A DNA stretch of 51,168 bases from positions 1 through 51,168 of the IMG/VR virus record IMGVR_UViG_3300006853_000005, one strand, 5' to 3'. Source of the stretch: a virus. Its lineage: Duplodnaviria; Caudoviricetes. The number at the start of each line of letters is the position of its first letter. The stretch's first letter is position 1. This document shows, one piece after another, positions 2,263 to 33,602 of this stretch. Both the position numbers and the translations under genes were made by a program. Below the pieces are notes generated by a model. That model was not told the DNA's origin. It did not search any database and saw nothing but the letters and a program-made list of their open reading frames with translations.

Positions 2263-3677
2263 GACTGTTCGAGCCCCTGATCAGCCGCACCGACGGGCCT
2301 CCGGCGGACCAGTACCCGGCGATGAGCTTCGACCAGTGGGTGCAGTTCACCGTCGGTGGGAACTCGTACCGGTTGCCGGTCGACACGACCCTGCCCGGCC
2401 AGCAGGCGGAGCCGATCGGGAACAGCTTCGAGGGTTACGCCGCTGGTGGGTTGTTCGGCAACGGTGTGATCTTCGGGCTCGTGTCGAAGCGGGTCGAGGT
2501 GTTCTCCCAGGCCCGGTTCCAGTTCCAGAACTTCAACAAGGGCCGGCCCTCCACGTTCTTCGGCGGCCCTGATCTGGGGATCCTGGAACGGCCGTGGCCG
2601 GGTGGGACGACCGCTGACCTGCTGGCGTTGATGCTGCTCCACGTCGACCTGGCCGGGAACTCCTACGTCACCACCCTCGACGGGCAGCTGGTGGTGATGC
2701 GTCCCGACTGGGTCGACATCTTGCTGCGGGAACGCATCTATGTGGATCCGTCGGGGGCGACGTCGGGGGTCGTCGGGTGGGAGAAGGCCGGGTACGCCTA
2801 CTACCACGGCGGCAAGGGGCAGACGTCCCGGCCGGTGCTGTTCCTTCCCGACGAGGTCGCGCACTTCATCGACAAGCCCGACCCGCTCGCGTCGTACCGG
2901 GGGATGTCGTGGCTCACCCCTGTGGTCCGGGAGATTCAGACCGACAGTGAGCTGACCCGCTACAAGCTGCGGTACCTGGAGAACTCGGCGACCCCGAACC
3001 TCGCTGTGTCGTTGGCGAAGGAAGTCACCCCCGAGCAGTTCTCCAAGTTCGTCGAGCTGATGGACGCCAAGCACGAGGGTGTGGACAAGGCCGGCAAGAC
3101 GCTCTACACGGGCGGCGGCGCCGATGTGACGGTGATCGGTGCGTCGCTCAAAGACCTCGACCTCAAGTCCGTGCAGGGCGCCGGTGAGACCCGTCTCGCC
3201 CAGGCGGCGGGGGTGCCGCCGGTGGTGGCGGACATGTCGGAGGGGATGCAGGGCTCGTCGCTGAACGCCGGGAACTTCGGGCAGGCCCGCCGCAAGTTCG
3301 CTGACACGACTCTCGCTCACCTGTGGGGCGCTGTTGCCGGGTCGCTCGAGGTCCTCGTTCCTGCGCCTCAGTCGGGCACCCGGCTGTGGACGGACTCCCG
3401 GGACATTCCGTTCCTCCACGAGGACCAGAAGGACCGAGCCGAGATCCTCGCCACGCAACTCAACGCGATCGAGGCCGGCGTGCGGGCTGGGTACGTGCCA
3501 GACACCGTCGTCGCAGCAGTGGACGCCAACGATCTGACCCTTCTCGAGCACACGGGCCTGTTCAGCGTCCAGCTCCAACCCCCGATGACCGAACAGCAGC
3601 AGGCCGACGCCACCGGGGACGTCGCCGCAGAACCGTCCCCAGACGACGAGGTGGCCGATGAGCCAGCAACTGTTTGA
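2259..3677 (+). CDS. HK97-family portal protein
   Basis: Synteny; LAGNSY, DEVAHF..PDPL..YRGMSWL, YLENSATP and LAQAAGVPP motifs; GTG at 2259 coupled to the upstream stop. Confidence 0.92.
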   Translation: MRLFEPLISRTDGPPADQYPAMSFDQWVQFTVGGNSYRLPVDTTLPGQQAEPIGNSFEGYAAGGLFGNGVIFGLVSKRVEVFSQARFQFQNFNKGRPSTFFGGPDLGILERPWPGGTTADLLALMLLHVDLAGNSYVTTLDGQLVVMRPDWVDILLRERIYVDPSGATSGVVGWEKAGYAYYHGGKGQTSRPVLFLPDEVAHFIDKPDPLASYRGMSWLTPVVREIQTDSELTRYKLRYLENSATPNLAVSLAKEVTPEQFSKFVELMDAKHEGVDKAGKTLYTGGGADVTVIGASLKDLDLKSVQGAGETRLAQAAGVPPVVADMSEGMQGSSLNAGNFGQARRKFADTTLAHLWGAVAGSLEVLVPAPQSGTRLWTDSRDIPFLHEDQKDRAEILATQLNAIEAGVRAGYVPDTVVAAVDANDLTLLEHTGLFSVQLQPPMTEQQQADATGDVAAEPSPDDEVADEPATV

Positions 3678-4434
3678 GCGCTCCTACCGGCTCGAGGACA
3701 TCGCCATCCGGGCCGGCGGCGACGGGCGCACCGTGACCGCCTACGCGGCGGTGTTCGACACCCCGGCCGAGGTCCGGGACTTCGACGGTCACTACATGGA
3801 GACCATCACCCGTACCGCGTTCGACAAGACCCTCGCCGAACGTTCCTCACGGGTGCAGGTGTTCTACAACCACGGCAAGACCCTCTACGGGACCCCGTCG
3901 GAGCGGTTCTCGCTCCCCATCGGCGTCCCCGAGGAGATCCGGGCCGACGACCGCGGGCTCCTCACCGTCACCCGCTACAACCGCACCGAGCTCGCGGACG
4001 AGGTCCTCGAGGCGATCCGCAACGGCGACATCACCTCGCAGTCGTTCTCCGGCCGGATCTTCACCTCGAAGCGCCCGCCGGAGAAGCTGAACGGTCTCAA
4101 GCAGATCGTCCGCACCGAGTTGGGCCTGACCGAGTACGGCCCCACCCCGATCCCCTCCTACGACGATGCCGCCGTGGTCGGGGTCCGTTTCCAGCAGCTG
4201 GTCGAGTCGCTCGACCAGCTCGACGAGGAGCAGCGCCTCGAGGTGCTCTCCCGCTACGGCACGCTTCCCACGATCGAGGAAGCGCCGCCTGAGTCCGATG
4301 TCGCCGGAGCCGAACAGGCCACCACGACCGAGGACAGCGACTCGCCGGTCTCCGGGGACCACGTGTCGGGACCCAGCCACGCAGAGCGCCAACAGCGCAT
4401 GCGTGCCCTCACTCTTCAAAGGAAGTTCACATGA
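3658..4434 (+). CDS. HK97-family prohead maturation protease
   Basis: AYAAVF, ETITRTAFDKTL, FYNHG, DDRGL, SQSFSG, EYGPTPIPSY motifs. Confidence 0.92.
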   Translation: MSQQLFERSYRLEDIAIRAGGDGRTVTAYAAVFDTPAEVRDFDGHYMETITRTAFDKTLAERSSRVQVFYNHGKTLYGTPSERFSLPIGVPEEIRADDRGLLTVTRYNRTELADEVLEAIRNGDITSQSFSGRIFTSKRPPEKLNGLKQIVRTELGLTEYGPTPIPSYDDAAVVGVRFQQLVESLDQLDEEQRLEVLSRYGTLPTIEEAPPESDVAGAEQATTTEDSDSPVSGDHVSGPSHAERQQRMRALTLQRKFT

Positions 4435-5924
4435 ACACCCTCGAAGAGGTTCTGGCCCGGCTCTCCGAGATCCGGACCGACCTCGAGAACATCGCCGCCA
4501 TCGAAGGCGACCTGGACGAGGCCCAGCGCTCCGACTGGGACGCCCTCAACACCGAGTGGGACACCCTCGACGCCAAGCGCGTCGAGCTGGAGGGCCGGGC
4601 CGAGCGCCTCCGCGCCCTGCGCTCCACCAACCTCATGCCCGCCACCGGCGACGGCGCCGAAGGGGCCGACGTCGAGCGGTCACGCGTGACCGACGAGTTC
4701 AACGCCCAGCGGTCGACCACTGACGACATCTACGAGCTCGGCGAGCTGGCCACGATCTCGCGTTCGTCGGGCGCGTACGGCACCGCGGTCCGGGATCGGG
4801 CCATGCGCTCGATCGAGGACTGGGAGGGTGTCACCCCCGAGATGCAGGCGTCGGCCGAGCGGCTGATCGCCAACGCCGGCCGAGCCGCCCGCCGGGGCAA
4901 GCACGACCACGCGCAGGAGATCGCCGAGCACATCCTGCGCACGGCCCAACCCGACTACGTCGAGGGCTTCTACAACCTCCTGGAGTCCCCTCAACTCGGC
5001 GTGGCGGGCCTCGACATCGACCAGGCCAAGGCGTTCCGCGCCGCGATGAACGAGGGCACCACAACCCAGGGTGGGTTCATGGTGCCCCCGATGCTCGACC
5101 CGTCGATCATCCTGACCAACGCGGGGATCTCGAACCCGTTCCGGCAGCGGTCGACGATCAAGAGCATCACGACCCAGACCTGGAAGGGTGTCACCTCCGC
5201 CGGTGTCACCGCCGAGTGGACCGCTGAGGCGGCCGAGGCGGCCGACGCTTCGCCGACGGTCGCGCAGCCCTCGATCACCCCGGTCCGTGCCGACGCCTAC
5301 GTGCAGGCCAGCTTCGAGATGGTCGAGGACACCTCGATCTCCGGTGAACTGGCGATGCTGTTCGCCGACGCCCGCGACCGGCTCGAAGGCACCGCGTTCG
5401 CTGTCGGCACCGGTTCGACCCAGCCTCACGGCATCGTGACCGAGCTGGGCCTCGTCACCGCTTCGCGGGTGTCGGCGAACACCAACGGCACCTACGGCGC
5501 CGTGGACGTGTACGCCGTCGACAACGCCCTGCCCCAGCGGTGGCGGGCCAACGCCACCTGGGTCGCGAACAAGTCGATCTACAACCTGACCCGCCAGTTC
5601 GCCTCGGGCTCGGGCCCGCAGCACGCGTTCTGGACGGACCTCGGTGGTGGTCGTCCGCCGATCCTGATCGGCTACGACGCCGACGAGTCCTCGGCGATGT
5701 TCAACGCCCCACTGTCCACGGCGACGGCGTCGAACGACGACATCCTGGTGCTGGGCGACTTCCGCCAGTACTACATCGTCGACCGGGTCGGCATGCAGGT
5801 CGCGTACAACCCGCTCGTGATCGGCTCCAACCGCCGGCCCACGGGCGAGGTCGGCTGGTTCGCGTTCTGGCGTGTCGGCGGTCGCACCGTCAACGCCGAC
5901 GCGTTCCGCATGCTCCGCGTCTGA
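4431..5924 (+). CDS. HK97-fold major capsid protein with N-terminal delta/scaffold domain
   Basis: N-terminal coiled coil, GGFMVPP, AEWTAEA, GTGSTQPHGI, LGDFRQYYIVDRVG, RVGGRTVNADAFRML. Confidence 0.95.
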   Translation: MNTLEEVLARLSEIRTDLENIAAIEGDLDEAQRSDWDALNTEWDTLDAKRVELEGRAERLRALRSTNLMPATGDGAEGADVERSRVTDEFNAQRSTTDDIYELGELATISRSSGAYGTAVRDRAMRSIEDWEGVTPEMQASAERLIANAGRAARRGKHDHAQEIAEHILRTAQPDYVEGFYNLLESPQLGVAGLDIDQAKAFRAAMNEGTTTQGGFMVPPMLDPSIILTNAGISNPFRQRSTIKSITTQTWKGVTSAGVTAEWTAEAAEAADASPTVAQPSITPVRADAYVQASFEMVEDTSISGELAMLFADARDRLEGTAFAVGTGSTQPHGIVTELGLVTASRVSANTNGTYGAVDVYAVDNALPQRWRANATWVANKSIYNLTRQFASGSGPQHAFWTDLGGGRPPILIGYDADESSAMFNAPLSTATASNDDILVLGDFRQYYIVDRVGMQVAYNPLVIGSNRRPTGEVGWFAFWRVGGRTVNADAFRMLRV

Positions 5925-5933
5925 CCCTCAGCT

Positions 5934-5978
5934 CGTCCCCAGCCCGCCGCGCCCCGGATCGCCGGCGGGCTGGGGACG
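5934..5978 (+). terminator. 16-bp perfect stem-loop after the capsid gene (terminator, attenuator or stability hairpin)
   Basis: cgtccccagcccgccg (5934-5949) / cggcgggctggggacg (5963-5978); no U-tract. Confidence 0.7.
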
Positions 5979-5999
5979 GAACCTATCCGGGAGGTTCTG

Positions 6000-7475
6000 T
6001 TGCCCAACCCCACCAAACGCGCCAGCGACAAGGTCGTGGTCGCCTACGCAACCACAGGCACCCACGACCATCGCTTCACCGCGTCGCTGCTCGACCTGTG
6101 GCGCTTCGACGCCATCGGCGGACGCGTCGACGGGAAACGCGTCGGCGGCCACCACCGGATCCTCCGCGGCGGCGGCCGGTTCGAGCGGGTCGGTTCGTCG
6201 ATCAGCCGGAACCGCAACCAGCTCGCGTCGCTGTTCCTCGAGGAGCACGACGCGCCGTGGCTGTTCACGGTCGACGACGACATGGACTTCGAGCCCGACA
6301 TCGTCGAACAGCTCCTCGCCGCTGCTGATCCGGTCGAGCGGCCGGTGATGGGCGGGCTGTGCTTCCAGTACCGGTTCGACGACCCGGTGCGCAAGCTGTG
6401 GCCCACCCTGTTCGCGCACATCCCCGGGACCACGAAGCTCGCCCGGCTCCAGCAGTACCCGGCGGATTCGGTGATCCAGGTCGCGGCGACGGGCGCCGCG
6501 TGCATGCTCGTCCACCGGTCGGTGCTCGAGGCGATGGCCGCCAAGTTCCCGAAGCCGAGACCCTGGTACGACCGGACCCCGTTCTACGACCACGACGCCG
6601 ACGGGAAGGCGATCCCCGAGACCGGCGACGAGTACTCCGAGGACATCACGTTCTGCCTGCGGGCCCAGGCGTGCGGCTTCCCGATCCACGTCCACACGGG
6701 AGCGAAGACCGGGCACGTGAAGTCGTTCGTCGCCGACGAGGAGCTGTTCATCAACGAGTCCGCGCAGCTCGCTGTGTCAACCCACTCCCCGGCGACGCAG
6801 GCCCCGACGTATGTGGTGGTGGCGTCGAAGTCCCGTCGGGGGATGCTCACCCGGCTCCTCGAGCAACTGAAGCCGCAGGTCGCGGGGTGCTTCGTGTACG
6901 ACAACGGCTACACCCCGCCGTTGCGTGACTCGATCGAGGCGCACGGCTGGCCGTTGCACCGCATGTGGAACGACGGCCTCGCCCAAGCCGAGAAGGCCGC
7001 GGGCGGGAAACCCCACAACGTCCTGATCATCAACGACGACGTCGAGGTCGAAGGGCACTGCGCTGCGCTTCTCGACGGTGCGCTCCGAGCGAGCGACGAC
7101 CACTGGGTCGCCTACCCGAACTGGCACGGCGCCGACATCCCCCTCGGCGCTGCGGTCGAGACCAGCAACCCGGAGATGGCCGGCCAGACCATGTCGGGCT
7201 GGTGCTTCATGCTCCGCGGGGAGACCGGTCTTCGCTTCGACGAGCAGTTCGAGTGGTGGTACGGCGACTCCGACCTACAGCGCAAGGTCGAGCAGGGCGG
7301 CGGGAAGGTCGTGTGCGTCGGTGGCTGCCACGCCATCCACCATGACCCGCTGCGGTCCACAGTCGACGACCCGGACCGTCTCGCTCAGGCGAGGGCCGAC
7401 GAGGCCCGGTTCGCTGCCAAGTGGGGGATCGACCCCGAGACGCTGTGGCTCGCCCAGAACCTGGTGTCCGCATGA
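6000..7475 (+). CDS. two-domain GT-A/GT2-like glycosyltransferase
   Basis: N-domain ISRNRNQL..WLFTVDDDMDF..ATGAACMLVHRSV..SEDITFC; C-domain LIINDDV..SGWCFML..FDEQFEWWYGDSDL; TTG start with GGAGG RBS. Confidence 0.85.
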   Translation: MPNPTKRASDKVVVAYATTGTHDHRFTASLLDLWRFDAIGGRVDGKRVGGHHRILRGGGRFERVGSSISRNRNQLASLFLEEHDAPWLFTVDDDMDFEPDIVEQLLAAADPVERPVMGGLCFQYRFDDPVRKLWPTLFAHIPGTTKLARLQQYPADSVIQVAATGAACMLVHRSVLEAMAAKFPKPRPWYDRTPFYDHDADGKAIPETGDEYSEDITFCLRAQACGFPIHVHTGAKTGHVKSFVADEELFINESAQLAVSTHSPATQAPTYVVVASKSRRGMLTRLLEQLKPQVAGCFVYDNGYTPPLRDSIEAHGWPLHRMWNDGLAQAEKAAGGKPHNVLIINDDVEVEGHCAALLDGALRASDDHWVAYPNWHGADIPLGAAVETSNPEMAGQTMSGWCFMLRGETGLRFDEQFEWWYGDSDLQRKVEQGGGKVVCVGGCHAIHHDPLRSTVDDPDRLAQARADEARFAAKWGIDPETLWLAQNLVSA

Positions 7476-8095
7476 TCGGCGTCGCGTTCATCTCCGACCG
7501 TGGCGCCACCTGCCCCGCCCTCCTGCCGGCGTGCTGCGACTCCCTCTACGAGCAGATCCCCGACGCCCCCCAGATCGGTCACGTCATCGACGACCGCGAC
7601 CATCAGCTAGGCCTCGCCGGCGCCGTCCAAGCCGCGTGGACGTGGGCGCTCGACACCGGGGTCGACCACCTCCTGCACGTCGAGGAGGACTTCCTGTTCA
7701 CCTCACCCGTGCGGCTCGCCGACCTGGTGTGGATCCTCGACCACGCCCCCCATCTCGCGCAGGTCGTCCTCAAGCGCCAGGCGTGGTCCGTCGAGGAGAA
7801 GCAGGCCGGCGGGATCATCGAGCTCAACCCTGACGTCTACACGCAGTGCGGGGGGATGCGTCACTCGACGTCGTGGGTGGAGCACACGAAGGTGTTCTCC
7901 CTCAACCCCTGCCTGATCCCTCGTCGTGTCCTCGAGTTGGGGTGGCCATCCGGTCCCCTGGGCGTGGGGAACGAGGCAGGGTTCACGCAACGGTGCCTCA
8001 TCGAGGGCTACCGGTTCGCCTTCTACGGCCAGGCTGGTGACCCCCCGGTCGTCGAGCACGTCGGCCATCAGCGGGGCGAGGGGTGGCGGCTGTGA
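7472..8095 (+). CDS. GT-A-like glycosyltransferase
   Basis: GLAGAVQAAW, HLLHVEEDFLF (DxD-like), FSLNPCL, VEHVG; ATGA coupling. Confidence 0.72.
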   Translation: MIGVAFISDRGATCPALLPACCDSLYEQIPDAPQIGHVIDDRDHQLGLAGAVQAAWTWALDTGVDHLLHVEEDFLFTSPVRLADLVWILDHAPHLAQVVLKRQAWSVEEKQAGGIIELNPDVYTQCGGMRHSTSWVEHTKVFSLNPCLIPRRVLELGWPSGPLGVGNEAGFTQRCLIEGYRFAFYGQAGDPPVVEHVGHQRGEGWRL

Positions 8096-8601
8096 TCGCC
8101 GTCCTCGGTGCCGGTCCCCACGGCCGCCAGCTCGCTTCGCTGCTTTATCCCGCCGCGCTCTACGACGACCTCCTCGACGGGTACGCACCGACCGTTGAGG
8201 GCGCCCGGAACCATCCGTGGGTGCTGGGCGCCGCGTGGCCCCACGTACGCCGCCAGATCGCCGCACAGTCGCTGTCTCGGTCCCCGAAGGACAACGGGAT
8301 CGTGATCTTCCCCGGCGCCCGGATCGGGACCGACACGACGATCGGGACTCACACCCATGTCCTGTTCAACGCCGTCGTCTCCCACGGGTGCCGGGTGGGG
8401 GAGTTCGTCACCATCTGCGCCGGGGCGGTCCTCTCCGGCGACGTCCATGTCGGTGACGACGTGATCATCGGATCGAACGCGACGGTCATCCACGGCGGCA
8501 TCACCATCGGTGCCGGTGCGGTGATCGGCGCCGGCGCCGTCGTGACCGGCGATATCGAGCCCGGCGAAGTTGTCGCCGGTGTCCCGGCGAGGCCGCTGTG
8601 A
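8092..8601 (+). CDS. NeuD/PglD-like sugar acetyltransferase (left-handed beta-helix)
   Basis: AVLGAGPHG N-terminus, hexapeptide repeats (VVSHGCRVGEFVTICAGAVLSGDVHVGDDVIIG), terminal VAGVPARP. Confidence 0.9.
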   Translation: MIAVLGAGPHGRQLASLLYPAALYDDLLDGYAPTVEGARNHPWVLGAAWPHVRRQIAAQSLSRSPKDNGIVIFPGARIGTDTTIGTHTHVLFNAVVSHGCRVGEFVTICAGAVLSGDVHVGDDVIIGSNATVIHGGITIGAGAVIGAGAVVTGDIEPGEVVAGVPARPL

Positions 8602-9185
8602 CCTGGCGTGAAGTGGCCGATCAGGCGAAGGGGTGGCTGTTCCCCGACGAAGCCGAAGCCCTCCACGCTTTCGCGCTCCTGGCCGCCGAGTCCCTCCCGG
8701 GGCTGCCGCTCGTCGAGATCGGCGGGTACTGCGGCAAGTCCGCCTGCTGGATCGGCGCCGCCGCCCAGGAACACGGCACGGTTCTCTACTCGATCGACCA
8801 CCACCGGGGGTCGCCGGAGATGGCCCCCGGACGGGAGTGCCACGACCCCGATCTGATCATCGACGGGGCACACGACTCGCTACCCCAGTTCCGGGCCACC
8901 ATCCGCCAGGCCGGCCTCGACGACACCGTGATTCCCGTCGTCGGCCCGTCACAGACCGTCGGCGCCCACTGGGACACGGCGGTGTCGTTCCTGTTCGTCG
9001 ACGGAGGGCACGACACCCGCACCGTCACCGGCGACTACAAGCTGTGGTCCCCCCACCTCGCGTCGGGTGGGGTGCTGGCGTTCCACGACACCACCGACCG
9101 CAGCATCGCCCCCCTCATGGACCAGGTTCGTGCCGACGGGTGGACCCTCACCGCCGAGATCGAGTCGCTGAAGGTGTTCCGGTGA
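8598..9185 (+). CDS. class I SAM-dependent methyltransferase (Methyltransf_24-like)
   Basis: LVEIGGYCGKS, SIDHH, FLFVDGGHD, GGVLAFHD. Confidence 0.9.
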   Translation: MTWREVADQAKGWLFPDEAEALHAFALLAAESLPGLPLVEIGGYCGKSACWIGAAAQEHGTVLYSIDHHRGSPEMAPGRECHDPDLIIDGAHDSLPQFRATIRQAGLDDTVIPVVGPSQTVGAHWDTAVSFLFVDGGHDTRTVTGDYKLWSPHLASGGVLAFHDTTDRSIAPLMDQVRADGWTLTAEIESLKVFR

Positions 9186-9895
9186 TCGTCGCGATCACGA
9201 TGGTCCGCGACGAGATCGACATCCTCCCTTGGACCCTCGCCCACATGCTCGACCAGGTCGACTACGTGATCGTCGCCGACAACGGGTCGGTCGACGGGAC
9301 CCGCGAGCACCTCGCGGACATGGCCGCCGCCTCACCGTCCCGGTTGCTTGTCCAGGACGACCCCGAGCCCGGCTACTACCAGGCCGACAAGATGACCCGC
9401 CTCGCCCACCAGGCCGGCGACATGGGCGCCACATGGGTCGTCCCGTTCGACGCCGACGAAGCATGGGACCTCCCCGACCTCGCCACGCTCGACGCGGACG
9501 TGATCACCGTCCGCCCGTGGTGGCACGTCCCCCACAACGACGACCCGGTCGACCCCAACCCCCTCGTCCGGATCCGGTGGCGGCTCTCGCAACGACAGGC
9601 CATGCCCAAGGTCGCGTTCCGCTACCACCCCCACGCCCAGCTCCACATGGGCAACCACGCCGTCAGGCGCCCGATCGGCTCGACGATCGCCGCCGCGGGG
9701 GAGATGCGGCACTATCCGTTCCGGTCCCTCGACCAGACCCGCAGGAAGGTCACCAACGGCGCCCAGGCGTACCGTGCCGCCCCCGACCTCGACGCCGGCT
9801 ACGGCGCCCACTGGCGCCAGCTCGATTCCTTCGACGACGACGCGCTCGAAGCGTGGTGGCGGGACCTCCAAGCCCGGGCGACTGACCGTGCATGA
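9182..9895 (+). CDS. GT2-like glycosyltransferase (Glyco_tranf_2_4 type)
   Basis: TMVRDEIDIL, VIVADNGSVDGTREHL, WVVPFDADE, GNH, RHYPFRS; GTGA coupling at 9182. Confidence 0.9.
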   Translation: MIVAITMVRDEIDILPWTLAHMLDQVDYVIVADNGSVDGTREHLADMAAASPSRLLVQDDPEPGYYQADKMTRLAHQAGDMGATWVVPFDADEAWDLPDLATLDADVITVRPWWHVPHNDDPVDPNPLVRIRWRLSQRQAMPKVAFRYHPHAQLHMGNHAVRRPIGSTIAAAGEMRHYPFRSLDQTRRKVTNGAQAYRAAPDLDAGYGAHWRQLDSFDDDALEAWWRDLQARATDRA

Positions 9896-10421
9896 CCACG
9901 CCCGCCGCTGGGTCACCGCCCACGCTGCCCTCGGCCACGACGAGAACATCGCCGACATCGGCGGCCGGAACGTCAACGGGTCGATCCGCGATCTGTTCCC
10001 CACCGCCCGCGACTACGTCACCGTCGACCGGCTCGACGGTCCCGGCGTCGACGTCGTCGACGACTTCCTCGAATGGCAACCAGCCGCCATCTTCGGACTC
10101 GTGTTGCACCTGGAGGTCGCCGAGCACACTCCCGACTGGCGGGCCCACATCGCCAAGGCCGCCGAGATCCTCCGTCCCGGCGGGGCGCTGATCTGGACGT
10201 GCGCCGGTCCCGACCGGCTACCGCACTCCGCGATCGACGGCGGACCCCTACGCGACGGGGAGCACTACCAGAACATCCACCCCAGGGAACTCGCCGCCGA
10301 GCTGCGCAGCGCCTTCCCGTCCGTCGTGACCCAGGTCGGGATCGGCCACCCGCTCGCGCTGCGCCACGACCATCCCGACACACCCGTAGGCGACCTGTAC
10401 GCGGTCGCCTGGACCGCCTGA
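9888..10421 (+). CDS. class I SAM-dependent methyltransferase
   Basis: IADIGGRNVNG, YVTVD..GPGVDVV, LEVAEH, ILRPGG. Confidence 0.82.
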   Translation: MHDHARRWVTAHAALGHDENIADIGGRNVNGSIRDLFPTARDYVTVDRLDGPGVDVVDDFLEWQPAAIFGLVLHLEVAEHTPDWRAHIAKAAEILRPGGALIWTCAGPDRLPHSAIDGGPLRDGEHYQNIHPRELAAELRSAFPSVVTQVGIGHPLALRHDHPDTPVGDLYAVAWTA

Positions 10422-10437
10422 TCCGGAGGCGCACCCC

Positions 10438-11016
10438 ATGTCCATCGCCGCTCTCGTCGTGTCCCTCCCGGAACGCCGCGGTCTGCTCTACGAGGCGATC
10501 GAGTCGATCTCCGACCAGACCCGCCAACCCGACCACCTCCTCATCGGCGTCGACTACGCCCACGTCGGAGAGGTCGCGAACCAGAACCGGCTCATCACCG
10601 CCGCCCTCGAGTCCGGCGCCGACTGGCTGGCGTTCCTCCACGACGACGACCTGTGGCTCCCCGACCACCTCGCCGCCGCCGAGAAGCACTTCGACACCGC
10701 CGACGTCATCGTCTCCCGGGTCACCACCATCGGCCGTCCCCAGTCGACCCTCGAACCCCAACACGACGACTTCGGCGACCTCCTCTACACCAACTGGTTC
10801 CCGCCCTCAGCGGTCGTCGTGCGGGCTGAGACGTTCGGCCGGTGGACCGACGGCGAAGCGCCCGCCGAACACCCCCAACTCCACTCGCGGACCCCGTGGA
10901 TCGACTGGACCAACTGGCGGCGCCTCTACACCTCCGGCGCCCGGATGGTCCACACCAACCAGGCCACCTGCCTCTACCGCTTCGGCGACTGGGACAACGG
11001 CTCCTGGAGGTCGTAG
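10438..11016 (+). CDS. GT2-like glycosyltransferase
   Basis: LLYEAIESISDQT, ANQNRLI, WLAFLHDDDLWLPDHL; GGAGG RBS. Confidence 0.85.
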   Translation: MSIAALVVSLPERRGLLYEAIESISDQTRQPDHLLIGVDYAHVGEVANQNRLITAALESGADWLAFLHDDDLWLPDHLAAAEKHFDTADVIVSRVTTIGRPQSTLEPQHDDFGDLLYTNWFPPSAVVVRAETFGRWTDGEAPAEHPQLHSRTPWIDWTNWRRLYTSGARMVHTNQATCLYRFGDWDNGSWRS

Positions 11017-11646
11017 ATGACCATCACGAACGGCTACTGCACCCTCGCCGAGTTGCAGGACTGGTCCGACTTCGCGGTCCCGTCGCAGCAGAACAACCAG
11101 GAAGCCGTGGTCACTGCCGTGTCCCGGTGGATCGAGCAGTACACCCAACGCCACTTCTGGCAGGACGGCGATGATTCACCCGTCGCCAGGGTGTTCGACA
11201 CCTGCGACCCCTACGTGGTCGACCTCGGGCCGTTCAACGACCTCGTGTCGATCACCGCCCTCAAGACCGACCAGGGCAACGACGGCACCTACGAGACCAC
11301 CTGGGACACCACCGACTACCAGCCGGCACCGGTCAACACCACCGGGCCCGAGCAGCGCCCCTACACCCAGGTCCGTGCGGTCCTCGGCCGCACCTTCCCC
11401 AGCCCCGACCGGCGGGCCGGGCGGATCCAGATCACCGGGGTCTGGGGTTGGCCGGCGGTCCCCCAGGCCGTGACACAAGCGTGCCTCATCCAGACAGCCC
11501 GGGTCCTCAAGCGTCGCCAAGCCCCCGAAGGTGTCGTCGGGTTCGCCGACCTCGGCGTCGTCCGCATGCAACCACGCCTCGACGCCGACGTGCAGGCGCT
11601 CCTCGACCCCTACCGGCACCCCAACACCGCCGTCCTCGTCGGATGA
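11017..11646 (+). CDS. head-to-tail adaptor (gp6/gp15-like)
   Basis: YCTLAEL, SRWIEQYTQRHF, ITGVWGWPAVPQAVTQACLI, DVQALLDPYR. Confidence 0.85.
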   Translation: MTITNGYCTLAELQDWSDFAVPSQQNNQEAVVTAVSRWIEQYTQRHFWQDGDDSPVARVFDTCDPYVVDLGPFNDLVSITALKTDQGNDGTYETTWDTTDYQPAPVNTTGPEQRPYTQVRAVLGRTFPSPDRRAGRIQITGVWGWPAVPQAVTQACLIQTARVLKRRQAPEGVVGFADLGVVRMQPRLDADVQALLDPYRHPNTAVLVG

Positions 11647-12053
11647 CCACCCTCACCCAGGTCATCGAAGCGCTCACCGCGAAGCTCGAAACGATCGGCG
11701 GGCTCAAAGGCTACGACTACGCCGCCGCCGCCGAGTTCCCCTCCGTCACCGTGATGCCCCCCGACATCAACTACCGGGAGACCATGGGCCGCGGGTGCAT
11801 CGGACTCAACCTCGAACTGCTCCTGTTCGTGTCTGCCGCCGACGCCATGAAGGTCAAGGACCTCTACCCGTACATGGACTGGGAAGGCGACCAGTCGATC
11901 GTCAAGCTCATCGACGACGACATCGACCTCGGCTTCGACGACCTCAACTGCCACGTCGTCGCCGCCCGCCCCCTCGGTCTCGAAGAGGTCGCCCTCTACA
12001 GCGCTTACGGCGCCGCGTTCACCGTCCAGCTCTACGCGACGAACCCCAGCTAG
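11643..12053 (+). CDS. probable tail terminator/neck protein
   Basis: Size, position before the tail-tube genes, ATGA coupling. Confidence 0.6.
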   Translation: MTTLTQVIEALTAKLETIGGLKGYDYAAAAEFPSVTVMPPDINYRETMGRGCIGLNLELLLFVSAADAMKVKDLYPYMDWEGDQSIVKLIDDDIDLGFDDLNCHVVAARPLGLEEVALYSAYGAAFTVQLYATNPS

Positions 12054-12062
12054 GGAGGCCCC

Positions 12063-12797
12063 GTGGCGACCACCGCTCTCACCGACGTGTTCTCGTACGT
12101 CTCCGAGTACGACTTCACGTGCGACACCAACAACGCCATGCTCGACCTCGCCGCCGCCGAGCTCGACGCCACCACGTTCTGCTCGAGCGGGTGGACCACG
12201 AAGATCGCCGGGCTCAAGTCGGTCAAGTACGACATGGCCGGGTTCTGGCAGTCCGCCGCGAACCAGGCCGTCGACCCCCAAGCGTTCCCGAGGCTGGGGA
12301 CGGTCGATGAGGTGTTCACCGTCGGCCCGGTCCGCACCGAAGCGACGGGGGTGACCTCGAGCGGCTGCTACTTGTTCAAGGCCGGGAAGTTCAGCTACGA
12401 GCAGTTCGGGCAGGTCGGGACGGTCGCCCCGTTCAAGCTGTCGTCGATGGGCACCAACGGGGTCGGTGTCCGTCGGGGCTGGCTCCTCAAGGCCAAGGGC
12501 TCGGTCTCCGCGACGGGACAGTTGGGTCAGACGTTCGACACCGCTCTCGGGTCCGCGTCGTCGACCCTGTACGCGACGGTCCACATCTTCACCGTCGGGA
12601 CGACGATCACGATCCAGCTCCAGTCCGACGACAACACCGGGTTCACGACCCCCACGACCCTGGCGACGATCGGTCCGCTCACCGCTGTCGGCGGGACGTG
12701 GATGACCCCGGTGGCAGGGAACTCCGACCGCTACCTCCGTTTCAACGTTTCCGCCAACACCGGCACACATTCGGTCGCAGCGGCCCTGGCCACCTGA
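12063..12797 (+). CDS. tail-tube-like protein with C-terminal beta-rich extension
   Basis: N-half similar to the next gene (ELDATTFCSSGWTTKIAGLKS vs ALDSTAMGDSWTEQTPGLKS); Thr/Gly-rich. Confidence 0.7.
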   Translation: MATTALTDVFSYVSEYDFTCDTNNAMLDLAAAELDATTFCSSGWTTKIAGLKSVKYDMAGFWQSAANQAVDPQAFPRLGTVDEVFTVGPVRTEATGVTSSGCYLFKAGKFSYEQFGQVGTVAPFKLSSMGTNGVGVRRGWLLKAKGSVSATGQLGQTFDTALGSASSTLYATVHIFTVGTTITIQLQSDDNTGFTTPTTLATIGPLTAVGGTWMTPVAGNSDRYLRFNVSANTGTHSVAAALAT

Positions 12798-12807
12798 AGG
12801 AGAAGCA

Positions 12808-13218
12808 ATGGCTGCTTTCGCTCTCACCAACGAGTACTTCGCGCTCAACGCCGTCGACATGTCGTCGTTCGTGAAGTCCGCGACCCTGACCCTCGACGCC
12901 GCCGCGTTGGACTCCACGGCGATGGGGGACTCGTGGACCGAGCAGACCCCCGGGCTCAAGTCCGGGACCCTCGCTCTCACGTTCAACGACGACTACGCGG
13001 CGACGACCGTCGATGACCGGCTGTTCCCGCTGTTCGGGACGGTCGTGACGTTCGAGGTCCGGCCGGTCGCCGGGATCGCCGTGTCGGCGACGAACCCCCG
13101 CTACACCGGGTCGGTGCTCGTCACCCAGCACACCATCGGCGGTGACGTCGGGTCGCTCGCAGCGAAGCAGCTGTCGTTCCCCACGTCGGGGACCGTCACC
13201 CGGGCCACCTCGACCTGA
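12808..13218 (+). CDS. major tail (tube) protein
   Basis: 136 aa, strong AAGGAG RBS, SATNPRYTGSVLV motif typical of actinophage tube proteins. Confidence 0.8.
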   Translation: MAAFALTNEYFALNAVDMSSFVKSATLTLDAAALDSTAMGDSWTEQTPGLKSGTLALTFNDDYAATTVDDRLFPLFGTVVTFEVRPVAGIAVSATNPRYTGSVLVTQHTIGGDVGSLAAKQLSFPTSGTVTRATST

Positions 13219-13239
13219 CCCGCCGCTCCAAGATCCGGG

Positions 13240-13875
13240 ATGGAGGACTTGATGGGTACATCCACGTCGGGCGCTCAGGTCGCCCGCAAGTTCATGCGGC
13301 TCGCCGAGGGGCTGTCGGACCAGAAGGTCCCGTTGAACCGCACCGCGCTCGAGGTGAAGCGGATCATGGAACGTTCCGCCGCGTCCGCTGGGGCGTTGGG
13401 GAACCGGCCGTCGGGGAAACGCAAGACGATCGGGGTCCGCTACAACCTGCGGAACCTCGCGGAGGGGTCGGGTGTGGCGATCGTGTCGTACACGGGCGCC
13501 GCTCACCTGCTCAACAACCCAACCTCGGAGCACTTCATCGCCCCGTCCGCGTACGGGTCGGTGGGTGCCCTGTCGGAGATCAGCCGCGGGCTGGGCGCGG
13601 TCACCGCGTTCGGCGGGTCGACCCGCGGGATGCTGTCGGCGGGGAAGGGCCGGCGGTTCCAGCTCTCCAAGTCCGGCAATCTGGTCCGCCGTAAGACCCG
13701 CGGTGGTGCGAGGGCGTTGACGATCGGCCCCGATCTCCGGGCCCACGCGTTCCACCCGGGCACCGCGGGCCAGGGGTTCTTCCAGGAAGCGAAGACTCGG
13801 GCTCTGGTGGTGGCGCCGAGGACCTACGCCCGGGCCGGGCTGACCGAGCCCCTCAAGCAGGCGTTCGCCGCGTGA
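13240..13875 (+). CDS. HK97 gp10-like tail completion protein
   Basis: Basic protein with HPGTAGQGFF C-terminal motif; lies in the tail module. Confidence 0.65.
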   Translation: MEDLMGTSTSGAQVARKFMRLAEGLSDQKVPLNRTALEVKRIMERSAASAGALGNRPSGKRKTIGVRYNLRNLAEGSGVAIVSYTGAAHLLNNPTSEHFIAPSAYGSVGALSEISRGLGAVTAFGGSTRGMLSAGKGRRFQLSKSGNLVRRKTRGGARALTIGPDLRAHAFHPGTAGQGFFQEAKTRALVVAPRTYARAGLTEPLKQAFAA

Positions 13876-14282
13876 GCACAGCGAAGCCGACGACCGACAA
13901 GGTCGTCACCGAGATCCTCGCCGGCCGACATGACGGCCGCCTCGTCGACATCGCCCAGGCGATCGAGCGGCGGGTCACGTCCGACGCCACCGGGTGGCTG
14001 TGGCGCATCACGCTCCCCGATGGTGAGGCGTGGGATTCCGAGACGGTCACGGTCGGGGAGCTGACGTTCGTCGAGCAGACCACCGGGGTGTCGTATCTGC
14101 TGATCGACCCGAACAAGTCGATGGCCCAGTTCCGGGCGCTGGTCACCGCCCACCACGTAGCCGCCGGGCTCGAACGCGACGCAGCGATCGCGAAAGCTTC
14201 GGCCCTCACCCAGTCCGAAGCGGTCAAGGCTGTTACCCACTACGAGGGCACCCTGGGAAAAGGATCAGGCTCGACCAGTTGA
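13872..14282 (+). CDS. tail assembly chaperone G
   Basis: Upstream of tape measure; ends at slippery G GGA AAA. Confidence 0.8.
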   Translation: MSTAKPTTDKVVTEILAGRHDGRLVDIAQAIERRVTSDATGWLWRITLPDGEAWDSETVTVGELTFVEQTTGVSYLLIDPNKSMAQFRALVTAHHVAAGLERDAAIAKASALTQSEAVKAVTHYEGTLGKGSGSTS

Positions 14283-14383
14283 TCAGCCTGTGCATCCAGG
14301 CGTGGCGCTGGCCGCCGACGGTCACCGCCGATCAGCCGGTCGGCCCGGTCGTGCGAGCCCTGATCCCGCTGCTCAAGGACTAG
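14255..14383 (+). other. -1 programmed ribosomal frameshift (GGGAAAA, 14255-14261) and GT extension
   Basis: CTG GGA AAA GGA; the -1 frame reads GKRIRLDQLISLCIQAWRWPP...LKD* to 14383. Confidence 0.85.
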
Positions 14384-14615
14384 GGGAGTCTCGGCGCATC
14401 GAGGCTCCCACGGTCACGAGCACGAACCCAGCGACGGCCGATATGCCGGCCAGTCCGCTCGACCCTCCGCCGACGGCTACCGCCGCGGCGAGCATGAGCA
14501 CGAACAGCCCCGCTGTCCGCAGGTTGACGCCGGTCTGCGTGAGCTGTGTCCGCCTCATATCGCCCTGCTGCTGATGCATCCGCCTGTTCATTAGGCCGAC
14601 GGTAGCTGCCAACAC
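14373..14615 (-). CDS. small two-TM membrane protein on the opposite strand (start uncertain)
   Basis: GLFVLMLAAAVAVGG..GLAGISAVAGFVLVTVGAS hydrophobic hairpin; fills the gap between GT and TMP. Confidence 0.6.
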   Translation of the reverse strand: MLAATVGLMNRRMHQQQGDMRRTQLTQTGVNLRTAGLFVLMLAAAVAVGGGSSGLAGISAVAGFVLVTVGASMRRDSPSP

Positions 14616-14643
14616 ACGCTATGTGCGTAGAGGAGGCGCCTCG

Positions 14644-17067
14644 ATGGGCTTCACCGAGACTCTGCGGCTGCTGGTCGAGGCGGACGCGAAGGGCGCGATC
14701 TCCGAGGTCGAGAAGCTCGGGTCCACTGCCGAGCGGGAGGCCAACCGCTCGGAGAAGGCCCTGGACCGGTGGGGCAACCGGATGCAGTCGGTGGGCACCG
14801 GGATGATGGTCTTCGGTGCCGCCGCCCTGGTCGGGCTGAAGTCGGCGGGTGACGCGGCCAGTGATCTGAACGAGGTGGCGTCGAAGTCGGCGACCGTGTT
14901 CGGCGAGGCCGCTGGTGAGGTTGACGAGTTCGCGTCGAACGCTGCGGACATCGGTCTGTCGAAGCGTGCTGCTCTCGAGGCGGCGTCGGGGTTCGGGAAC
15001 CTCTTCGATCAGCTGGGGTTCGCTAACGAGGCGTCGGCGGACATGTCGATGTCGTTGACGCAGCTCGCGTCGGACTTCGCGTCGTTCCACAACGCGGACA
15101 TCACCGAGGTGATCGAGGCGCAGACGGCTGCGTTTCGGGGCGAGTACGACTCGCTGCAGCGGTTCGTGCCGACGATCAACGCGGCTGCGGTGCAGCAGCA
15201 GGCGATGGCCGAGACCGGCAAGGACAACGCCGACGCCCTCACTGAGGCCGAGAAGGCCGCGGCGACCTACACGTTGATGATCGAGGGCGCCGGCGCGGCG
15301 ACGGGTGACTTCGCCCGGACCGGTGACTCCGCTGCGAATCAGCAGCGGAAGCTGAACGCCAACTGGGAGAACCTCAAGGCGCAGCTCGGCCAGGGTGTCC
15401 TGCCCGCGATGCAGACGATGCTGGGTGTCACCAATGACGTCGTGGGCGGCCTGTCCGACCTCAACGCGGTGACCGACGGAACGCTCGGGAAGATCGCCAC
15501 CTTCGGTGCCGTCGGGCTCGTCGCCGCCGGTGGCGTGTCGACCCTGGTCGGCAAGGTCATCACCATGCGGGAGAACTTCAAGACCGCATGGGACGCGGTC
15601 CAGAAGCTGAGGGGCGGGATGAGCGGTCTCTCCGGATCCGCCACCCGGGCCGGCCTCGCTTTCGGCGCCCTGGCGATCGTCGGCCAGACGATCGACGAGA
15701 TCTCCGGGGGGATCGAGCACATCGACCTCGCGAAATTGGAGAACGATCTGCTGCGGCTCGGTGAGACCGGGCGAGCGTCGGGCGACCTACTCGCTGCCGC
15801 GGGTGGAGATCTCGACAAGCTCCGCGATGCCATCGAGATGATCGCGGCGCCGTCGACCGCCACCCAGGTCAAGAACGTGATGGAAGAGATCTCGACTGGC
15901 GGCGGACTCCTGGGCGAGACCGGTCACGACCTCGAAGAGGCAAAGGCCCTCGTCGACGACTTCGATAAGGCCCTCGCCCAACTTGCCACCCGCGACCCCC
16001 AGCTTGCTGCTGACGCGCTCAAGCAGCTGACCGACCAGATGAACCCGGAGGAAGCCGGCCGGTTCGTCGGGCTCCTCGACGACTACGACTCGGCGCTCGC
16101 CGAGATCGATACGACTGAGGCGACGTCGGGGACCGATGAGCTCGGCGGCGCTATGGGCGAACAGTCCGAAGAGACCGCCGCTGCCGAGGACGCCCTGAAG
16201 GACTACCAGGACCAGCTGAAGGGGATGTTCGACCCGCTGTTCGCTATGTCCGACGCGTTGGACAAGAACAGCGAGGCGCACGCCAACCTCCAGGCCAAGC
16301 AGCTCGAAGCGTTCGTGGCGCAGGATGAGTACAACGAGGCGGTCCGCCGGTACGGCGAGAACTCTGACGCTGCCCGGGACGCGGCGGCGAACAACATGGA
16401 GGCCCAGGAAGCGCTCGCTGATGCGCAGCGCGACGCCCGCAACGCGGTGATCGATCTCGACTCTGCGGCGGCTGACCTGCGGTTCGAGATGGACGAGAAC
16501 GGGCTGACCGCCGAGCAGGCCCGGGCCCGGTTCGTGGAGATGGCCACCCAGATGGGCTACACGGAAGCCCAGGCGAACCAGCTGGCCGACGAGTTCGGGT
16601 TCGTGACCCGCAAGGCCCAGGAGGTCGGCCGGCAGCATCCCCGCCCGACGATCAGTGCCAGGGACCTCGCCACGGGGGTCATCAACTCGGTGGGCGCCGG
16701 GCTGGGGGCGATCGACGGGCGCTCGGCGACGGTCACGATCAACGCCAACACGATCATCCGGTCCGTGGTCGAGGGCTTCGGGTTCGGTGGTGGCCGAGCG
16801 CGTGGCGGCTCGGTGTCGGGGTCCAAGTTCTACGAGGTGGTCGAGGACGGCGCACCGGAGCTGTTCAAGACCGGGGGCCGGACCTTCATGATCCCCGGCG
16901 CTGACGGTGAAGTCGTCCCGACCTCCGACGTGTCGCTCGGCTCGGGCGTCGGGATGGGCGGGACGACGATCATCAACCACGTCCACGTCGCCGGGTCGGT
17001 GCTTTCCGACCGGGACCTGGTGCAGACGATCAACCGGCTCACCGCCCGGGGCAGGGGGCTCAACTAG
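14644..17067 (+). CDS. tape measure protein (807 aa)
   Basis: AGGAGG RBS; long Ala-rich helical protein; ASDLNEVASK, LASDFASFHN, C-terminal RARGGSV..YEVVEDGAPELF. Confidence 0.93.
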   Translation: MGFTETLRLLVEADAKGAISEVEKLGSTAEREANRSEKALDRWGNRMQSVGTGMMVFGAAALVGLKSAGDAASDLNEVASKSATVFGEAAGEVDEFASNAADIGLSKRAALEAASGFGNLFDQLGFANEASADMSMSLTQLASDFASFHNADITEVIEAQTAAFRGEYDSLQRFVPTINAAAVQQQAMAETGKDNADALTEAEKAAATYTLMIEGAGAATGDFARTGDSAANQQRKLNANWENLKAQLGQGVLPAMQTMLGVTNDVVGGLSDLNAVTDGTLGKIATFGAVGLVAAGGVSTLVGKVITMRENFKTAWDAVQKLRGGMSGLSGSATRAGLAFGALAIVGQTIDEISGGIEHIDLAKLENDLLRLGETGRASGDLLAAAGGDLDKLRDAIEMIAAPSTATQVKNVMEEISTGGGLLGETGHDLEEAKALVDDFDKALAQLATRDPQLAADALKQLTDQMNPEEAGRFVGLLDDYDSALAEIDTTEATSGTDELGGAMGEQSEETAAAEDALKDYQDQLKGMFDPLFAMSDALDKNSEAHANLQAKQLEAFVAQDEYNEAVRRYGENSDAARDAAANNMEAQEALADAQRDARNAVIDLDSAAADLRFEMDENGLTAEQARARFVEMATQMGYTEAQANQLADEFGFVTRKAQEVGRQHPRPTISARDLATGVINSVGAGLGAIDGRSATVTINANTIIRSVVEGFGFGGGRARGGSVSGSKFYEVVEDGAPELFKTGGRTFMIPGADGEVVPTSDVSLGSGVGMGGTTIINHVHVAGSVLSDRDLVQTINRLTARGRGLN

Positions 17068-28463: not shown

Positions 28464-28632
28464 CGTTGGCTCACACGTTGGGCTCACATCGGGCCTCCCG
28501 GCCCTGGTCAGAGCGTTTTCAGCGGAAGGTATGGGATTCCCCCAACCAGCCCTCGCACACGGGTTGAGCAGCCATAACGACCCATAGGAGACCATCGCAA
28601 CCTATGGTCTATGGCTCACGTTGGCTCACACG
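28464..28632. mobile_element. attP: tRNA(Ser)-like 3'-end core (28521-28539) flanked by GGCTCAC arm-type repeats
   Basis: Reverse complement GAATCCCATACCTTCCGCT resembles a tRNA T-loop-to-3' end; cgttggctcacacg is identical at 28464 and 28619; further ggctcac at 28481 and 28613; adjacent to the integrase. Confidence 0.8.
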
Positions 28633-28647
28633 GACAGGGGCAGGCGG

Positions 28648-33600: not shown

Positions 33601-33602
33601 GC

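Follow-up and report, generated by a model that had tools for sequence, protein, structure and literature searches.

Introduction

What is known of virion glycosylation in phages comes from a few mycobacteriophages, and Freeman et al. 2023 reportedly saw little sign of it among phages at large. Passages in subsequent papers refer to Freeman et al. 2023 for a glycosylated capsid and tail tube in Che8, Corndog and Myrna, and sections of a report on Corndog place an O-methyltransferase (gp35) and the glycosyltransferases gp36-38 between the genes for portal and protease, describing these enzymes as made in infected cells and absent from virions (PMC4351075). Here we analyze a cassette of seven genes, designated g1 to g7, that occupies the interval between the major capsid protein (MCP) gene and the head-tail adaptor gene of IMG/VR record IMGVR_UViG_3300006853_000005, the genome of a tailed phage of 51,168 nucleotides (nt) that we refer to, over its whole length, as the window. 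The likeliest job of this cassette, which we put at a probability of roughly 0.55, is to glycosylate structural proteins of the same phage, those of the capsid and/or the tail tube, as virions are assembled.

Two of the mycobacteriophage systems invite direct comparison. Pfam searches identify Corndog gp35 as TylF/Methyltransf_24 (PF05711/PF13578), Che8 gp108 as a fusion of GT2 and Methyltransf_24, and both Corndog gp38 and Che8 gp110 as GT25. Like the window, Corndog is an actinobacterial siphophage with a multi-gene cassette in its head operon that combines GT-A glycosyltransferases with an O-methyltransferase of the Methyltransf_24/TylF type; unlike the window, it uses the portal-protease slot, has four genes instead of seven, lacks an acetyltransferase and a second methyltransferase, and includes the GT25-type gp38. 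It is also described as devoid of lysogeny genes (PMC11600133), whereas the window phage has an integrase. Che8 is a temperate actinobacteriophage, as the window phage is, and its gp108-110 likewise join GT-A enzymes with a Methyltransf_24 domain, but these genes lie at the right end of the genome (56171-58673 of 59472), outside the head operon. Phage glycan cassettes that decorate virions are hence already known. An initial annotation of the window, made from the sequence alone, had found no characterized tailed phage with such a tailoring set, a claim that overstated the case, since Corndog gp35-38 and Che8 gp108 already carry methyl tailoring. What is new here is the enzyme families, the insertion site and the extra tailoring: beyond what the validated systems have, the window contains an acetyltransferase, one further methyltransferase and more glycosyltransferase domains, of different families, at a new position.

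Uncharacterized glycosyltransferase clusters are found in other phages, and gene-for-gene resemblances to the window exist among them. Phage GX15bay (Caudovirales, MK557849), from mangrove soil, groups six annotated glycosyltransferases with one methyltransferase in a block at 4678-9801, one of its GT2 enzymes being 39% identical to g5, but the block lies upstream of the terminase and has endoglucanase and mannanase genes nearby. The C-terminal domain of g1 resembles the glycosyltransferase gp109 of Streptomyces phage KimJongPhill, which sits beside a methyltransferase, but near the end of that genome. None of the clusters of GX15bay, KimJongPhill and Streptomyces phage Zuko is placed between MCP and adaptor. 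Temperate enterobacterial phages also harbor serotype-converting cassettes of the gtrABC type, whose products are membrane proteins, a flippase among them, and whose expression takes place in the lysogen. Neither a phage virion glycan tailored with acetyl and methyl groups nor a glycosyltransferase island adjacent to a capsid gene emerged as a printed precedent from our search, a weak negative given that it covered the subscription literature only in part.

Results and discussion

Organization and expression of the cassette

The seven genes are all encoded on the + strand and fill positions 6000-11016, from MCP to adaptor, for a total of 5017 nt or 9.8% of the record (Table 1 lists the coordinates of all features). 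Given that the DNA is about 70% GC, genes were chosen by analyzing third-position GC content (GC3) across frames, together with start-codon context. The junctions from g1/g2 to g7/adaptor measure, in order, -4, -4, -4, -4, -8, +16 and 0 nt. Because the genes overlap and the stop codon of g7 abuts the ATG of the adaptor, we take the island to be transcribed with the late head-tail genes. Its GC content (0.695) is close to that of the genome (0.697), and both its GC and its GC3 match those of the structural genes. In line with late co-expression, a scan of positions 3500-15000 detected no sigma-70-like promoter. On all these points the initial annotation has been borne out: it had described about 5 kb, or 10% of the genome, between capsid gene and adaptor, filled by chained genes with no internal promoter-sized gap, ending in a stop codon that abuts the adaptor, and co-expressed with the late structural genes.

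A gap of 75 nt separates MCP from g1, and just 3' of the MCP stop codon it holds a GC-rich hairpin that is probably an attenuator or an RNA-stabilizing element. In Gordonia phage Eyre and in the Mycobacterium phages Babsiella and Mycofy1, connector genes come straight after MCP and no island is present. This agrees with the earlier assertion that capsid and adaptor genes are normally adjacent, and it indicates that the island is an insertion at the MCP/connector junction, just downstream of the hairpin. Similar post-MCP hairpins are present in the island-bearing relatives L020, L027, L030 and L046 and also in the island-free Eyre, Babsiella and Mycofy1, so that the hairpin belongs to the lineage and not to the island. 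This puts the island where the late operon is expressed less strongly, a position that suits enzymes. Two weak terminator candidates inside g2 and g4 were rejected, 3.5 such sites being expected by chance.

A crude Kyte-Doolittle scan with a 19-residue window found no transmembrane (TM) segments in g1-g7, with maxima below 1.6 except for the hexapeptide repeat of g3 (1.66). Six-frame family searches of the genome gave no match to PF01370 (Epimerase), PF00483 (NTP_transferase), PF01041 (DegT aminotransferase) or PF01943 (Wzx-type flippase), each of which was detected in 13-14 of 14 control genomes, and the GT2 matches of the genome are confined to the cassette. The absence of obvious TM segments, of a flippase and of nucleotide-sugar synthesis genes, all previously proposed, is thus upheld. 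The window shares with the gtrABC type the presence of glycan-modifying genes in a temperate phage, but the combination of flippase and integral-membrane glycosyltransferase that defines that type was not found (no PF01943 match, no TM-like segment), and its genes lie in the late operon.

These observations bear on the possibility that the enzymes modify the host envelope, acting on lipid-linked or nascent wall glycopolymers of the actinobacterial host, either in the lysogen, where they would serve conversion or superinfection exclusion, or late in infection, where they would mask receptors on debris. We consider this unlikely. The phage is temperate, encoding a tyrosine integrase as well as a large serine recombinase, the post-MCP hairpin could insulate the island, and the absence of TM segments is in itself no obstacle, the Staphylococcus aureus prophage enzyme TarP being a soluble GT-A protein. 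However, the same hairpin is found in island-free relatives, the genome reveals neither a flippase nor a polyprenyl-phosphate transferase-like TM protein, no gap in the cassette is large enough for a promoter, late transcripts must cross the island to reach the adaptor abutting g7, and the composition of the cassette is that of the structural genes.

The island in other phages and prophages

A survey of gene order, which had been suggested alongside the initial annotation, links the island to the capsid gene more strongly than the sequence of the window alone could. A profile of g1 derived from a 60-sequence alignment (A1) matched at least 598 stretches of IMG/VR, at least 569 of which encode a relative of g1, and 80 loci were kept for analysis. 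Genes in these relatives were picked with a home-made GC3 filter and locally built profiles, so the counts per gene type given below are lower bounds; the filter missed, for example, g3 in L011 and L023, and tblastn located g3 in L011 and L012. An MCP-homolog ORF (open reading frame) lies upstream of the g1 relative in 76 of the 80 loci, at a distance of no more than 1.5 kb in 66 and no more than 2.5 kb in 75. Of the four loci without MCP, two were matched less than 800 nt from the start of their contig, and another failed gene picking. The position after MCP is conserved across capsids down to about 30% identity, a constancy among diverged loci that would be unexpected for a conversion moron and that further disfavors envelope modification. 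In the 30 loci where both MCP and adaptor were recognized, the insert between them spans 0.8-9.1 kb; at 5.1 kb, that of the window is large but not the largest. Scans of IMG/VR with single sequences recovered 11 loci for g1 and 4 for MCP, with a g1 relative directly after MCP in 9 of the 15; the remaining six comprise the island-free L004, a locus that ends at MCP and four that carry only the C-terminal domain, in other contexts. The link is also seen from the capsid side: an IMG/VR scan anchored on MCP, using a capsid alignment (A4), found a glycosyltransferase before the adaptor in 55 of the 80 loci kept, whereas the adaptor followed directly in 13, 7 were 'other' or unclear and 5 too short.

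Named genomes and metagenome-assembled genomes (MAGs) yielded no relative when scanned with the g1 sequence alone and 95 when scanned with its profile. A glycosyltransferase ORF was called in 69 of the 79 loci kept, and in 43 of these 69 an MCP homolog lies within four ORFs upstream. Prophages bearing the island reside in cultured Actinoplanes, Streptomyces, Kribbella, Spongiactinospora, Amycolatopsis, Nonomuraea, Acrocarpospora and Actinocorallia, and the island is also found in an uncultured Candidatus Frankia genome and in many Actinomycetota MAGs, which points to Actinomycetota as its main hosts. Chromosomes of Lentzea (L155-L162, L171) harbor homologs of only the C-terminal domain of g1, with no recognizable capsid gene nearby. 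These could represent a bacterial source, or another mobile context, of this domain, and they lend some support to an envelope function.

Isolated phages are far more distant. A near-identity DNA search with positions 4400-11700 against 50,697 phage records returned no match, and in tblastn searches of the same records g1 matched eight, none covering at least 80% of the query, with three matches each for g4 and g5. The group is large and, as judged from these sequence comparisons, without an isolated member close to full length for g1 among the 50,697 records. In a separate arrangement, a 54.7-kb viral contig (L013, 8495-11178) encodes a 575-residue glycosyltransferase, composed of a GT2 and a g1-C-like domain, and a methyltransferase after a tail-fiber-like gene, not a capsid gene.

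Enzymes of the cassette

Family and structure searches agree, with graded support, with the initial reading of the cassette as four glycosyltransferase genes encoding five GT-A domains, two methyltransferases and one acetyltransferase. The five GT-A/GT2-type domains (g1 N, g1 C, g2, g5 and g7) are supported by matches to GT2-clan models and, in g1, by acidic DxD-type motifs (D92/D94 and N345/D347), although the sequences of g1 and g2 themselves fall below Pfam thresholds. The signature gene of the island is g1, which starts at a TTG codon preceded by GGGAGG and matches the glycosyltransferase family phrog_34859 over residues 65-252 (1.7e-21). Its 123 homologs at E<=1e-5 include fusions of GT2 with Methyltransf_24 (P0106), its Atlas clusters are 95-100% viral, and eight of its residues (D92, D94, E214, D215, N345, D347, D423 and D467) are invariant in 60 sequences. 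Among relatives of the N-terminal domain, PF00535 is matched by 29 of 61 and PF13641 by 18 of 61; among those of the C-terminal domain, 32 of 50 match PF00535. The profile of the latter domain also aligns with the GT-A domains of chondroitin synthase 2z87 (2.3e-8). The N-domain profile found nothing below 0.098 in the PDB, where g1, g5 and g6 had no matches as single sequences; hits of the whole-g1 profile to GmaR (0.005) and DPM synthase (0.016) were weak, and GmaR is not used as evidence here. No Pfam model matches g2, which overlaps g1 by ATGA, but its Atlas model (pTM 0.87) superimposes on viral GT2 clusters with TM-scores of 0.87-0.88. The match of g7 to PF00535 (1.3e-4, 22.4 bits) is slightly under the cut-off of 23.3.

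The acetyltransferase g3 had been called NeuD/PglD-like, a description that holds for its C-terminal beta-helix half but not for the protein as a whole. It aligns with TIGR03570 (NeuD/PglB/VioB) at 1.1e-32, covering only profile positions 103-202 and scoring 113 bits against a cut-off of 160.8, and a full-length match including the N-terminal nucleotide-sugar-binding domain was not obtained. VioB (7txp, 2.2e-15) is its best relative in the PDB, followed by N-acetyltransferases of the PglB/PglD/PerB type; the N-terminal domain of g3 is about 34 residues shorter than that of VioB. These best solved relatives N-acetylate nucleotide-linked amino sugars. Since the phage lacks an aminotransferase, g3 would need an amino sugar from the host, or else would O-acetylate the glycan.

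The first methyltransferase, g4, scores 93.8 bits against PF13578 (cut-off 26.3), which places it in the sequence family of MeT1. It aligns over residues 6-165 (160 residues) with PDB entry 6g7d (5.2e-33), which we take to be Mycobacterium hassiacum MeT1, the 1-O-methyltransferase of methylmannose polysaccharide (MMP). The JGI names of g4 homologs, either 'MMP 1-O-methyltransferase' or 'O-methyltransferase YrrM', agree with this identity. No g4 homolog was found in the 80 related viral loci or by a single-sequence scan of IMG/VR. As far as its sequence can tell, g4 is a sugar O-methyltransferase, notwithstanding the label 'DNA methyltransferase' that PHROGs attaches to its nearest family (phrog_2675, 2.2e-12).

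The kinship with MeT1 raises the prospect that the cassette makes a free cytoplasmic glycan, either a soluble methylated and acylated oligosaccharide resembling MMP and methylglucose lipopolysaccharide (MGLP) or a decorated small molecule, that alters host metabolism or aids assembly. Methyl and acyl tailoring is a hallmark of these mycobacterial polysaccharides, with which the window shares soluble methylation chemistry on sugars; all the enzymes of the cassette look soluble, and no carrier or flippase accompanies them. According to the relevant part of the MMP literature, MeT1 methylates the 1-OH of free methylmannosides, but the mannosyltransferase of the system, ManT, is of the GT-B fold and its product is a free cytoplasmic polysaccharide (PMC9883506), whereas all five domains of the window are GT-A/GT2 and linked to virion genes. 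Moreover, an identity of about 50% is too low to read regiospecificity, Methyltransf_24 enzymes are also used in Corndog and Che8, and a free product would leave unexplained why the island is retained beside the capsid gene in many phages. We accordingly hold a free glycan to be improbable.

The PHROG label of g4, together with the well-known DNA glycosyltransferases of phages such as T4, might instead suggest that the glycosyltransferases and methyltransferases hypermodify the phage DNA against restriction. The likelihood of this appears to be very small. The complete genome has no match to the thymidylate-synthase-like model PF00303, detected in 10 of 14 control genomes, and hence no hydroxymethylase of that kind; a separate N6/N4 DNA methylase is encoded among the replication genes; g4 resembles a sugar O-methyltransferase far more closely; the island lies inside the head operon; and, as detailed below, related islands encode a range of sugar-modifying enzymes.

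The second methyltransferase, g6, scores 26.9 bits (4.6e-6) against PF13489 (Methyltransf_23), whose cut-off is 27. Its start at 9888 is backed by alignments from residue 1 in L008-L010.

Candidate acceptors of the glycan

The strongest argument for glycosylation of virion proteins is the fixed position of the island beside diverged capsid genes, combined with its forced late co-transcription with the adaptor. Under this model, the seven translationally coupled genes would be expressed by read-through past the post-MCP hairpin, at the low level appropriate to enzymes. The five GT-A domains would start and extend an oligosaccharide on Ser/Thr residues of structural proteins, drawing on host nucleotide sugars; g4 and g6 would O-methylate its sugars, and g3 would acetylate either the glycan or, before transfer, a host-made nucleotide amino sugar. 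Gene order, coupling, enzyme families, the lack of TM segments on a crude scan, the absence of flippase and nucleotide-sugar genes and the conserved position after MCP are observed; the acceptor molecule, the kinds of sugar, the sequence of reactions and their regiochemistry are inferred, and the acceptor constitutes the weakest point. Besides MCP, the upstream anchor of the island, the candidates are two major-tail-protein paralogs with Ser+Thr contents of 23.4% and 24.3%, a level common for such proteins, the second of which ends in ...TSGTVTRATST. A pair of long and short tail proteins (MTPa/MTPb) recurs in many related loci.

Several findings weigh against a virion acceptor and have to be set beside this argument. 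Freeman et al. 2023 reportedly found the C-terminal ends of capsid and tail tube to carry the glycans. The MCP of the window ends in ...AFRMLRV and has no Ser/Thr-rich C-terminal tail, and among related capsids the C-terminal tails do not separate 40 MCPs with a following glycosyltransferase from 16 without one. The mature MCPs of the former show a Ser+Thr excess (16.7% vs 14.3%, strongest near residues 424-438 of the window MCP), but this is small and confounded by relatedness, and we reject it as evidence. Similarity to the validated enzymes is not significant: all window proteins compared by blastp with the seven enzymes Che8 gp108-110 and Corndog gp35-38 reached a best E of 0.078, and no window protein matches GT25 (PF01755). 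The proportion of 55 of 80 in the MCP-anchored scan is biased upward, because nearly all sequences of alignment A4 come from phages that have the island and because near-identical contigs were retained. The phage being temperate, the genes may also be expressed in the lysogen, and the promoter scan does not model actinobacterial promoters. Envelope precursors can serve as substrates for soluble GT-A enzymes, as wall teichoic acid does for TarP. Lastly, the closest characterized relative of g4 is described as acting on a free oligosaccharide, whose reducing end it caps (PMC9883506); such an activity would sit poorly with a protein-linked glycan if regiochemistry is conserved.

The comparison with validated systems is accordingly one of content: the window combines phage glycosyltransferases with an O-methyltransferase of the Methyltransf_24/TylF type (g4, g5) and shows no significant similarity to the validated enzymes. 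Gene content suggests that the cassette would work as the Che8 and Corndog systems do, without being a member of either by descent.

Should the virion be the acceptor, actinobacterial phages in soil would commonly have sugar-coated particles, with chemically diverse glycans that include methyl, acetyl, deoxy and C-methyl sugars. Sugar-coated phage particles may then be commoner, and chemically more varied, than the few known mycobacteriophage cases imply. The selective reason for such coats in soil, where antibody shielding is excluded, would be open to study in tractable strains, and the island would offer a toolbox of soluble, protein-directed GT-A and tailoring enzymes for phage-surface engineering. 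The arrangement occurs in at least 569 IMG/VR stretches and in prophages of cultured genera, including those of Actinocorallia aurantiaca JCM 8201 (L163), Spongiactinospora rosea LHW63015 (L125), Streptomyces speibonae NRRL B-24240 (L120) and Actinoplanes campanulatus JCM 3059 (L116). Should the glycan go to the host wall or stay free instead, the location in a capsid-linked late operon itself requires explanation. The island is worth following because it is widespread and modular in its linkage to the capsid gene and because cultured lysogens are available.

Modular content of related islands

Partners of g1 vary across the 80 viral loci. The commonest is a g6-type methyltransferase, which adjoins the g1 relative, with at least 15 occurrences, followed by g2 (at least 11), g3 and g5 (at least 9 each) and g7 (at least 7), with none for g4. 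The closest relatives, L006 and L020 (identical to L183, on the same contig), have g1-g2-g3-g5-g7 followed by the adaptor, and the window island corresponds to this core with two extra methyltransferases, g4 and g6. Between g3 and g5, the window has Methyltransf_24, L012 an FkbM methyltransferase, L006 (12919-13482) an unknown ORF of 187 residues without Pfam match, and L020 nothing. In L012, g7 is replaced by an unrelated GT2.

Pfam searches of 55 unlabelled ORFs located between MCP and adaptor in relatives revealed further methyltransferases (eight Methyltransf_23, three Methyltransf_24, two FkbM, one TylF and one CmcI rhamnosyl O-methyltransferase) and sugar enzymes (five C-methyltransferases, PF08484/PF08421; two GDP-mannose 4,6-dehydratases, the best at 4e-110; and two epimerase/RmlD-type reductases, Epimerase and RmlD each being matched in two ORFs), as well as 2-oxoglutarate oxygenases. 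A prophage of Actinocorallia aurantiaca displays the order capsid, glycosyltransferase, methyltransferase, epimerase-like gene, adaptor. That related islands consistently encode sugar chemistry argues that the methyltransferases of the window act on sugars. Three of the 55 ORFs are HNH endonucleases, and an Endonuclease VII gene also lies inside capsid-adaptor islands, which hints that homing-type elements contribute to turnover at the MCP-adaptor junction.

A broader proposal, which we advance tentatively and at somewhat less than even odds, is that in a very large uncultivated clade of temperate Actinomycetota phages the MCP-adaptor junction is a hypervariable 'virion glycan locus', a counterpart of the O-antigen locus, in which g1 and a set of plug-in slots generate chemically distinct methylated and acetylated glycans under diversifying selection. 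The slots would be filled by alternative methyltransferases, the acetyltransferase, an extra GT2 and sometimes the phage's own GDP-sugar dehydratase or epimerase, and the window would rank among the most heavily tailored members. Islands of Spongiactinospora rosea (L125, 12587-13792) and Amycolatopsis pretoriensis (L128, 11530-12429) also contain Laminin_G_3 (concanavalin-like lectin) proteins, which may serve as capsid decoration or in glycan binding.

Genomic setting

The IMG/VR record is classed as complete with terminal repeats, and a 29-base direct repeat is present at both ends. The phage is from soil; two DNA sequencing data sets of rhizosphere metagenomes are possibly its source, and no RNA data set is listed. 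Its left arm is an HK97-type late operon with terminase-sized and portal-sized ORFs, an S78 prohead protease and MCP; to the right of the late genes, an amidase gene and a DnaB helicase gene accompany the features of Table 1. The nearest isolated phages by MCP, namely Gordonia phage Eyre, Rhodococcus phages and mycobacteriophages of the Che9c and Brujita groups, share 32-35% identity over the full length and at most 40% over three quarters of it. The phage is a temperate siphophage of high GC content whose host is probably actinobacterial.

Table 1. Location of the cassette genes and of other features in the window
Feature	Position	Strand	Remarks
g1, two-domain glycosyltransferase, 491 aa	6000..7475	+	N-domain ~1-262, C-domain ~265-491
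g2, single-domain GT-A glycosyltransferase, 207 aa	7472..8095	+	phrog_3047 'galactosyl transferase' 2e-7
g3, left-handed beta-helix acetyltransferase, 169 aa	8092..8601	+	Hexapep 9.1e-15, above cut-off; alternative start 8083
g4, MeT1-family sugar O-methyltransferase (by sequence), 195 aa	8598..9185	+	PF13578 (Methyltransf_24) 1.4e-26
g5, GT2 glycosyltransferase, 237 aa	9182..9895	+	PF13704 (Glyco_tranf_2_4) 4.3e-12 and PF00535 1.5e-5, both above cut-off
g6, class I S-adenosylmethionine (SAM) methyltransferase (Methyltransf_23/11 type), 177 aa	9888..10421	+	phrog_32762 9.4e-16
g7, GT2-like glycosyltransferase, 192 aa	10438..11016	+	phrog_14775 glycosyltransferase 7.9e-13
GC-rich hairpin just 3' of MCP stop	5933..5979	+	-51.9 kcal/mol, z -3.62, 0/200 shuffles as stable
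Major capsid protein (MCP), with N-terminal scaffold-like region	4431..5924	+	PF05065 3.8e-36, residues 214-495; phrog_10 1.4e-38
Head-tail adaptor, downstream anchor of the island	11017..11646	+	phrog_442 2.3e-19
Major-tail-protein paralog, candidate acceptor, 244 aa	12063-12797	+	phrog_9522 5.2e-33
Major-tail-protein paralog, candidate acceptor, 136 aa	12808-13218	+	phrog_4574 1.5e-30
S78 prohead protease	3658-4434		left arm
Tyrosine integrase	28621-29727
Mu Gam-like protein	33327-34166		right arm
Large serine recombinase	41418-42809
N6/N4 DNA methylase	45432-46688		right arm, among replication genes

A tyrosine integrase and a large serine recombinase are thus both present in one 51-kb genome. 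A right-arm protein encoded at 44343-45005 gives a weak match to sigma-70 region 2 (23.9 bits, with a cut-off of 24). Between the adaptor and the tail proteins, the longest ORF (11448-12053) has an Arg/Pro-rich N-terminus of 65 residues that overlaps the adaptor gene; its match to a tail-terminator PHROG begins at residue 66, and the true start is therefore probably the ATG at 11643, with a 4-nt overlap with the adaptor stop codon.

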